This document shows, in pieces, positions 3,107 through 3,204 of a DNA stretch of 5,684 nt (position 1 is the first letter of the stretch; the number at the start of each line of letters is the position of its first letter). The stretch lies in IMG/VR virus record IMGVR_UViG_2698536552_000009, one strand, 5' to 3'. The position numbers and the translations under genes were made by a program. Source of the DNA: a virus (Duplodnaviria > Heunggongvirae > Uroviricota > Caudoviricetes). The notes beneath the pieces are model-generated. The model did no database searches. It was not told the origin of the DNA and saw nothing but the letters and a program-made list of their open reading frames with translations.

Positions 3107-3138
3107 TCATGTTTCACCTCTTTAAGTGTTCATATACG

Positions 3139-3179
3139 AAAAAGGGAAAGACTACCGATATCACTCGATAATCTCTCCC
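3139..3179 (-). terminator. Candidate intrinsic terminator or attenuating hairpin on the minus-strand transcript between the 321-aa gene and the tape measure gene
   Basis: Minus-strand RNA 5'-GGGAGAGAUUAUCG-AGUGAUAU-CGGUAGUCUUUCCC-UUUUU: 14-bp stem (three G-U pairs), 8-nt loop, then a U5 tract (plus-strand AAAAA 3139-3143). On the plus strand the G-U pairs become C-A mismatches, so the structure is specific to the coding-strand transcript. Confidence 0.4.
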
Positions 3180-3204
3180 GTAGATTTTCACCCAACCAAT
3201 CTTG

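Follow-up and report, generated by a model that had tools for sequence, protein, structure and literature searches.

[quoted passage not shown] This reading is carried by the structure itself, which is strand-specific, conserved and covarying and holds a fixed position among the genes, by a conserved promoter upstream of the unit and by the missing space for a promoter downstream of it. These features were examined in the window (i.e. the whole stretch of 5,684 nucleotides that was analysed, from the IMG/VR virus record IMGVR_UViG_2698536552_000009) and in its relatives.

The hairpin occupies positions 3144-3179 on the minus strand and comprises 15 base pairs with a folding energy of -22.2 kcal/mol, conserved with compensatory changes. 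Its 5' arm GGGAGAGATTATCGA (3179-3165, minus strand) and its 3' arm TCGGTAGTCTTTCCC (3158-3144, minus strand) enclose the 6-nt loop GTGATA (3164-3159, minus strand), and the terminator scan detected the U-tract TTTTT (3139-3143, minus strand) immediately past the stem. Read in minus-strand orientation, the region 3204-3107 begins with CAAGATTGGTTGGGTGAAAATCTAC-GGGAGAGATTATCGA-GTGATA-TCGGTAGTCTTTCCC-TTTTT and continues after TTTTT with CGTATATGAACACTTAAA-GAGGTG-AAACATGA-ATG. The first-pass annotation had described this terminator-like element as a 14-bp stem with an 8-nt loop and U5, which is real and corresponds to the 15-bp structure minus its closing A-U pair. The distance of 18 nt to the Shine-Dalgarno sequence, as given there, is exact, since the T-run ends at 3139 and GAGGTG, the Shine-Dalgarno sequence of the TMP gene, occupies 3115-3120 (minus strand), 8 nt upstream of the ATG at 3106; this Shine-Dalgarno sequence is kept in relatives. 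According to the terminator scan, six G-C and three G·U pairs are among the 15 pairs of the stem 3179-3144, and the base of the hairpin is GGG/CCC, so that three G-C pairs adjoin the U-tract. The stem is by far the longest of four loose matches in the window (terminator scan; shuffles expect 2.8 +/- 1.6). The 116-nt intergenic region as a whole folds with -33.3 kcal/mol (z = -3.74), and none of 200 dinucleotide shuffles was as stable, while the hairpin alone reaches -22.2 kcal/mol in sense as compared to -9.5 kcal/mol in antisense orientation. As it starts 25 nt past the stop codon of the 68-aa gene, the hairpin is intergenic and in sense orientation. What speaks against a strong terminator is the stem, which is long and in its upper half rich in A/U and G·U pairs, and therefore atypical for strong E. 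coli terminators. The window copy may moreover leak, because its U5 is followed by a C at a place where most relatives have U6. An Rfam scan of the window resulted in chance-level matches only.

For comparison, a metagenome scan with the small (68-aa) protein gave 80 loci, and together with the genome loci the set of relatives amounted to 91. A hairpin with a run of T5-T7 is present between the small ORF and the TMP gene in 91/91 relatives first examined, with T6 as the most frequent form (74 loci, against 10 with T5 and 7 with T7). These 91 loci share 25 distinct hairpins, with energies ranging from -14.9 to -22.4 kcal/mol, and in 25/25 variants the sense strand is the more stable one (mean -19.9 versus -11.6 kcal/mol antisense). 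Over the hairpin variants, 62 of 363 pairs (17%) are G·U pairs, which would be A·C mismatches on the opposite strand. The stability bias towards the sense strand and the G·U pairs argue for an RNA structure on the coding strand rather than a DNA palindrome. Within the stem, the lower 5' arm GGGAGAGATTA is invariant, and its partners alternate between G-C and G·U as well as between U·G and U-A, and the apical part of the stem is swapped outright with the pairing kept (ATCGA/TCGGT, AACC/GGTT, AGCC/GGCT, ATCTGGAT/ATCTAGGT).

A covariance model recovered 98 sense-strand copies in 100 sources, and on the alignment of that model, 98.7% of the cells are paired, in comparison to 92.2 +/- 0.5 in shuffles. 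The counting tool, for which some antisense rows were included, gave 94.9% paired versus 91.9% in shuffles, and slid-partner controls were only 47-58% paired. By the same tool, eight pairs are changed on both sides versus 3.8 +/- 1.2, with 0/500 shuffles as high, in an alignment that is fitted to the model and in which the both-sides counts (columns 11-13) are partly a one-base register shift in the GGGGAGAG variant. Beyond the close relatives, islands whose 236-aa homologue is only 28-35% identical (L094, L096) have kept the gene order and carry a hairpin with T6 at the equivalent place. In L094, this hairpin is of unrelated sequence (GGGGGGTTGCTGC-TTAGTT-GTGGTGACCC), and we regard the retention of gene order and hairpin in these distant islands as the strongest single point for conservation.

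The hairpin has mosaic flanks. It follows the stop codon at a distance of 6 to 75 nt, and between the T-run and the TMP ATG there are 18 to 142 nt, composed of small cassettes that are interchangeable. As the hairpin is retained within these mosaic flanks, it is an autonomous unit that lies outside of the 3' end of the small ORF and of the TMP ribosome binding site. In the shortest spacer form, TTTTTTGTATGAGGTGAAATATGAATG, the Shine-Dalgarno sequence begins 5 nt past the T-run, and there is no room for a promoter. Two further elements were noticed in this interval. The motif ATTGGTTGGGT (3190-3200, minus strand), located past the stop of the 68-aa gene and ahead of the hairpin, is present in nearly all of 76 distinct downstream sequences, though the adjoining spacer is mosaic. 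Relatives also carry 0 to 3 mini stem-loop cassettes of ~20 nt between the small ORF and TMP, before or after the terminator, in the forms GAGATAG-N4-CTATCGAATC, GAGGATAG-N4-CTATCCGAAGTC and GAGATTAG-N4-CTAAT (e.g. L004 9985-10005, L003 9985-10010); the window contains none of them.

In the genes upstream of the hairpin, the masked sequence is misleading. The N runs at 2822-3059, 3356-3605, 3785-4049 and 5012-5373 consist of 238, 250, 265 and 362 N and stand for 247, 241, 250 and 244 real bases, respectively, as judged by the unmasked copy L007, and because the masks preserve neither length nor frame, no ORF, frame or distance that spans one of them can be relied on. The copy used here (L007, CP151357.1) is one of the chromosomal loci L007-L012 that were obtained by a lookup of the window's 101-aa protein (4649-4951, minus strand). 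Of the window's five unmasked stretches, four agree with it at 100% identity, and the remaining one (4050-5011) differs by a single mismatch. The 321-aa gene of the first-pass annotation turned out to be an artefact of the masking, since L007 shows a 236-aa and a 68-aa gene instead. The unmasked order is the 236-aa gene, its TAA, 24 nt that contain the Shine-Dalgarno sequence AAGGTGGTGGTGA, and the 68-aa gene that ends at window position 3205. The 68-aa gene (3205-3411, minus strand; L007 9517-9723) codes for a basic protein with homologues in all relatives and the conserved motif KI.KWC.D..P.D.QI.G; its upper coordinate is approximate, as the start lies within the mask 3356-3605. The same holds for the lower coordinate of the 236-aa gene (3445-4170, minus strand; L007 8782-9492), the stop of which lies within a mask.

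The predicted fold of the 236-aa protein is a long helical hairpin with a small alpha/beta domain (model pLDDT 81), and a fold search with this model returned generic coiled-coil matches only. The protein has no Pfam, NCBIfam, PHROG or PADLOC match, and its family is narrow, with 22 representatives among 1.84 billion proteins. In RefSeq, it is named 'transposase' (L002 15430-16140 and all RefSeq homologues), a name that looks unfounded in view of the missing family match and the coiled-coil hairpin of the predicted fold. The masked '321-aa' region had no match in phages, neither in the distant DNA mode nor in the protein mode of the search.

The 236-aa/68-aa pair is found directly upstream of TMP in the 91 loci, in 15 IMG/VR contigs, and with homologues at 28-35% identity; in some relatives, an additional gene separates the two. 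The suggestion of the first-pass annotation that a moron or accessory gene had been inserted in front of TMP does not agree with this distribution: as the pair is present and syntenic in every relative examined, the unit is not a moron insertion. Its other observation, that no chaperone pair with a slippery site is visible, persisted after mask removal, as there is no slippery heptamer X XXY YYZ in frame in either the 236-aa or the 68-aa ORF. A chaperone-like role of the pair for the divergent TMP of the island may be considered.

The upstream genes had been supposed to form their own transcription unit, and this is borne out by a conserved promoter at one end and the predicted terminator at the other. 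Scan and conservation both point to a sigma-70 promoter-like element TTGACA-17-GATGAT with TG (extended -10) at 4516-4544 (minus strand). In the form TTGACA-17-(TG)-GATGAT/CATAAT, it is conserved in 47/49 relatives with enough flank, and the distant relative L094 has a 12/12 consensus promoter at the equivalent place. From this promoter, a leader of ~340 nt is predicted ahead of the 236-aa gene. The leader (window 4171-4544, minus strand) has the hairpin GGGAAGAGCAACTCTTCC at its start; among the relatives, about half of the leaders that differ from each other (22/41) contain a terminator-like GCCCT..AGGGC hairpin with T4-6, of which the lineage of the window has kept the stem and lost the T-run. 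Rfam had nothing in the leader 4171-4544. On the other side of the promoter, a 25-aa hydrophobic ORF, MTLVILWMTLGLFVGCWVGNTVNKN (window 4569-4646, minus strand), starts within the stop codon (TAATG) that ends the 101-aa gene; L002 has conserved this ORF, which may be a small membrane peptide. Downstream of the unit, a promoter was sought between the hairpin and TMP or overlapping the hairpin, and none was found in the scan; the spacer to the Shine-Dalgarno sequence measures 18 nt. For the window and roughly 60% of the relatives, the interval that separates the T-run from the TMP Shine-Dalgarno sequence is too short to accommodate a promoter (spacers, counted to the ATG, of 18-61 nt).

From these features we infer how transcription would proceed. 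Host RNA polymerase would start at the extended -10 promoter (4544-4516) and transcribe the leader of ~340 nt, then the 236-aa gene and then the 68-aa gene. The 15-bp RNA hairpin would form behind U5, and most polymerases would release the RNA at ~3143-3135. Since the Shine-Dalgarno sequence follows only 18 nt past the U-tract and no promoter fits in between, TMP and the tube-initiator gene would be transcribed only by read-through, and because TMP has no promoter of its own in the lineage of the window, the terminator would also be an attenuator of the TMP and tube-initiator mRNA. Such an attenuator would keep the tail genes low or off relative to the 236-aa/68-aa pair, and phage infection may raise the read-through. 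Termination itself, its efficiency and the regulation of read-through are predicted properties. The first-pass annotation had named a partial terminator that tunes TMP expression as an alternative, and this idea fits best, in view of the missing promoter room in the window and in roughly 60% of the relatives. If, on the other hand, a ~75-nt cassette described below has promoter activity, the hairpin would simply close an operon, and would not attenuate, in the ~40% of relatives that carry this cassette between hairpin and TMP.

The genes behind the hairpin are related to those of Felixounavirus tails. The TMP gene (935-3106, minus strand; phrog_4036, PF20155) codes for 726 aa in the unmasked copy and for 723 aa if read across the mask. 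Its best matches are Felixounavirus TMPs with ~30% identity, but both ends, residues 1-45 and the final 12 (LLSSSYPEEE), hardly differ from those of the Felixounavirus TMP; the centre is conserved as well, and the rest is at ~30%. The island TMP is 22 aa shorter than the Felixounavirus TMP (935-3106 versus L001 5278-7524). The conserved ends are consistent with a docking into a Felix O1-type tail. At the start of the gene, an out-of-frame ATG lies 4 nt before the TMP ATG and opens a 7-codon mini-ORF, MNEQIHS, which overlaps the TMP start (window 3087-3110, minus strand); its equivalent in relatives is ATGAACAATGGC..., and it is probably not used because its Shine-Dalgarno spacing is short (4 nt).

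TMP is followed by the remnant of a tube-initiator or Dit-like baseplate gene (99-799, minus strand; phrog_3721, PF21821), which shares ~92% DNA and 72% protein identity with the Felixounavirus counterpart in equivalent position. Judged by gene order, this would be the tube initiator, the counterpart of gp18, the tube initiator of Bas63 (PMC12609058). The gene is inactive in the window, as a ~73-nt deletion near 631 splits it into the ORFs 626-799 and 34-345 and as it is cut by an IS end (1 to ~98) that shares 96-98% identity with IS copies from plasmids of Shigella and E. coli.

Between TMP and the next gene lies the conserved cassette CTACGTGAA..TAATACCCACAC..TTCACGTAGCTCACGCTTAA (859-922, minus strand). 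In general form, the cassette is ~75 nt long, CTACGTGAA..(TAATACCCACAC)..TTYACGTAGCTCACGCTTAA, with a 9-bp inverted repeat, and its place is ahead of TMP, of the tube-initiator gene or of both. About 40% of the relatives have it also between the terminator and the TMP Shine-Dalgarno sequence (e.g. L003 9910-9975), and in seven IMG/VR contigs, two copies are ~2.2 kb apart. A BLAST search of the phage collection returned no match for the cassette, scanning IMG/VR for its exact pattern brought up nothing but copies of the present island, and no convincing -35/-10 elements are recognizable in it. It may be a promoter, possibly a phage-dependent one, or an RNA element.

What kind of locus carries these genes? 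The setting is not that of a phage tail operon. The window matches E. coli chromosomes at ~92% identity, and its counterparts there are islands of 11-13 kb in strains MSB1_9I, A7 and 2018-166, in which no capsid, terminase, sheath or tube genes were found. At the level of the sequence, the locus is a chromosomal integrative island and not a phage. The order of genes is a large serine recombinase, the Dit-like 'baseplate protein', TMP, the ~68-aa gene and the 236-aa gene, then ~0.5 kb of non-coding DNA, the ~101-aa gene and variable small genes, and finally an O-like / HTH_36 replication initiator, a Dam methylase and a small serine recombinase. Three different sites are occupied (wrbA/ymdF, tonB/yciI and msyB/lpxL). 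The 236-aa gene with the hairpin region is present in 479 of 5,426 complete E. coli genomes (~9%), and a scan of species-representative genomes gave two loci only. The complete E. coli RefSeq set contains no exact copy of the window, although 4,840 blocks of the collection list its 101-aa protein, and a Shigella lineage is therefore its probable source. Decay of the window copy is evident from the deletion in the tube-initiator gene and its cut by the IS, and the gene of the large recombinase is also interrupted by IS elements.

The island has features by which phage satellites are recognized, namely an integrase, different chromosomal sites, its own replication module and an incomplete set of virion genes (TMP and tube initiator only). 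Terminal overlaps, which would be a sign of an excised circle, were absent from the metagenome contigs of ~11 kb. By its gene content, the island looks like a parasite of Felix O1-type phages, i.e. a satellite or a defence element. One may tentatively go further and suppose an undescribed satellite family of virulent Felix O1-type phages, or a defence element that poisons tail assembly, with the hairpin silencing TMP and the tube initiator until the phage arrives, but this extended proposal is on balance improbable. In such a case, the island would supply its own TMP and tube initiator, of which the ends that dock into the phage tail are retained, and read-through or a phage-dependent promoter would turn the tail genes on at infection. 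A limited literature search found no published description of the present island family or of a Felixounavirus satellite.

Which other explanations can be given for the hairpin? The one that deserves most attention, although we consider it rather doubtful, is that the hairpin stops transcription completely as long as the island is resident and is overridden upon infection by a Felix O1-type phage, either by an antiterminator or by a phage-dependent promoter in the cassette, so that the TMP and tube initiator of the island would be made only during such an infection. A strong, constitutive-looking promoter followed by terminators resembles the arrangement in antitermination-controlled late operons, and the second terminator-like hairpin in the leaders of many relatives, GCCCT..AGGGC with T4-6, would fit into this scheme, but the lineage of the window lacks the T-run at this leader hairpin, and no antiterminator gene was recognized in the island, the small proteins of which have no Pfam, PHROG, NCBIfam or PADLOC match. 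The closeness of the tail genes to Felixounavirus, with a tube initiator at ~92% nucleotide and 72% amino acid identity and nearly identical TMP termini, is well compatible with such a dependence on the phage, and so is the position of the cassette before TMP, the tube-initiator gene or both, exclusively in the present island family. The cassette itself, however, has neither convincing -35/-10 elements nor a match in the phage collection.

It is unlikely that the hairpin mainly is a 3'-end stability element or processing site of the 236-aa/68-aa mRNA with little effect on TMP transcription. Stable 3' stem-loops shield bacterial mRNAs from 3' exonucleases, and the unusual length of the stem would suit such a protective function. 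A pure stability element, however, would not need the U-tract that is kept in 91/91 loci, and a stable 3' end at this position must first arise by termination or cleavage. Even less can be said for a role of the hairpin as part of the TMP 5' untranslated region that controls translation by hiding the Shine-Dalgarno sequence or as a thermosensor. The distance of 18 nt in the window and a predicted fold in which the Shine-Dalgarno region is weakly paired could be taken as hints, but among the relatives the distance between hairpin and Shine-Dalgarno sequence ranges from 5 to ~130 nt with unrelated cassettes in between, and the Shine-Dalgarno sequence never lies within the hairpin, which makes this role very improbable. 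The least credible idea is that the inverted repeat is a DNA-level site for a recombinase, replication, packaging or a binding protein, as may come to mind for an island with two serine recombinases and a replication initiator, and for inverted repeats, which are commonly protein-binding; 17% G·U pairs, an antisense strand that folds ~8 kcal/mol worse on average in 25/25 variants, loop and apical stem sequences that vary freely while pairing persists, a T-run on one side only, and an unrelated sequence of equal shape in L094 all contradict it.

The attenuating terminator that we favour is, as a prediction, an ordinary and well-conserved intrinsic terminator that changes nothing in principle, and it is the setting in the island that is the interesting part. 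The gene model is corrected from one gene of 321 aa to two genes, the RefSeq name 'transposase' is without family support, and transcription units are defined for an island that is widespread in E. coli. The tail genes of this island sit behind a conserved barrier, and any model of their regulation has to explain the terminator as a boundary. Felix O1-type phages are used in the typing and biocontrol of Salmonella and E. coli. If the island parasitizes or blocks such phages, the terminator barrier would be an obvious control point that is easily testable.

How does the arrangement compare with known systems? Phage morons of the HK97/HK022 type are sporadic additions between late genes, each made up of a gene with its sigma-70 promoter and terminator. 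The 236-aa/68-aa unit resembles them in having its own sigma-70-type promoter and terminator and in adjoining tail genes, but none of the relatives lacks it, even at 28% protein identity, and the element that carries it is not a phage. In their position, the two genes directly upstream of TMP resemble chaperone pairs of the gpG/gpGT type, as they take the place of the 132-aa and 79-aa chaperones of SP116. Homology to these Felix O1-type chaperones was considered and rejected, as there is no sequence or profile similarity and the fold matches are generic coiled coils. In contrast to gpG/gpGT pairs, the two genes have no overlap, slippery heptamer or frameshift; the gap of 24 nt between them contains a separate Shine-Dalgarno sequence, and a terminator lies between the pair and TMP.

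With respect to the whole island, the closest parallel is given by putative satellites in E. coli that carry TMP along with a baseplate protein and were described by Barth, Dunham and Seed in 2023 (PMC10055350 / PMC10448857). Both are small integrative islands with TMP and one baseplate protein in which the rest of the tail is missing, and they share the order gene X, 67-68-aa gene, TMP, baseplate protein and integrase. The satellites of Barth et al. have a major capsid protein, mostly a tyrosine integrase, and integrate beside tRNA genes (PMC10055350 / PMC10448857), and phage Muut, one of their presumed helpers, is a member of the genus Justusliebigvirus. In strain A7, both kinds of islands occur at different loci, the Barth-type element with the order capsid, 67-aa gene, TMP, baseplate protein and integrase; as only 14 nt lie between its small gene and TMP, this element has no terminator before TMP. 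An identity of the present island with that family was rejected, because four comparisons (TMP, baseplate protein, small ORF and capsid gene) gave no significant alignment.

The hairpin itself is best compared to intrinsic terminators and intra-operon attenuators such as lambda tR'. It differs from typical intrinsic terminators in its 15-bp stem with the A-U- and G·U-rich upper half, and in its position, which is 18 nt before the ribosome binding site of the next gene and within a string of genes rather than at the end. What it has in common with lambda tR' and its like is the G-C-rich stem base followed by a U-tract, in sense orientation and past a stop codon, and a structure that is conserved more than the sequence.
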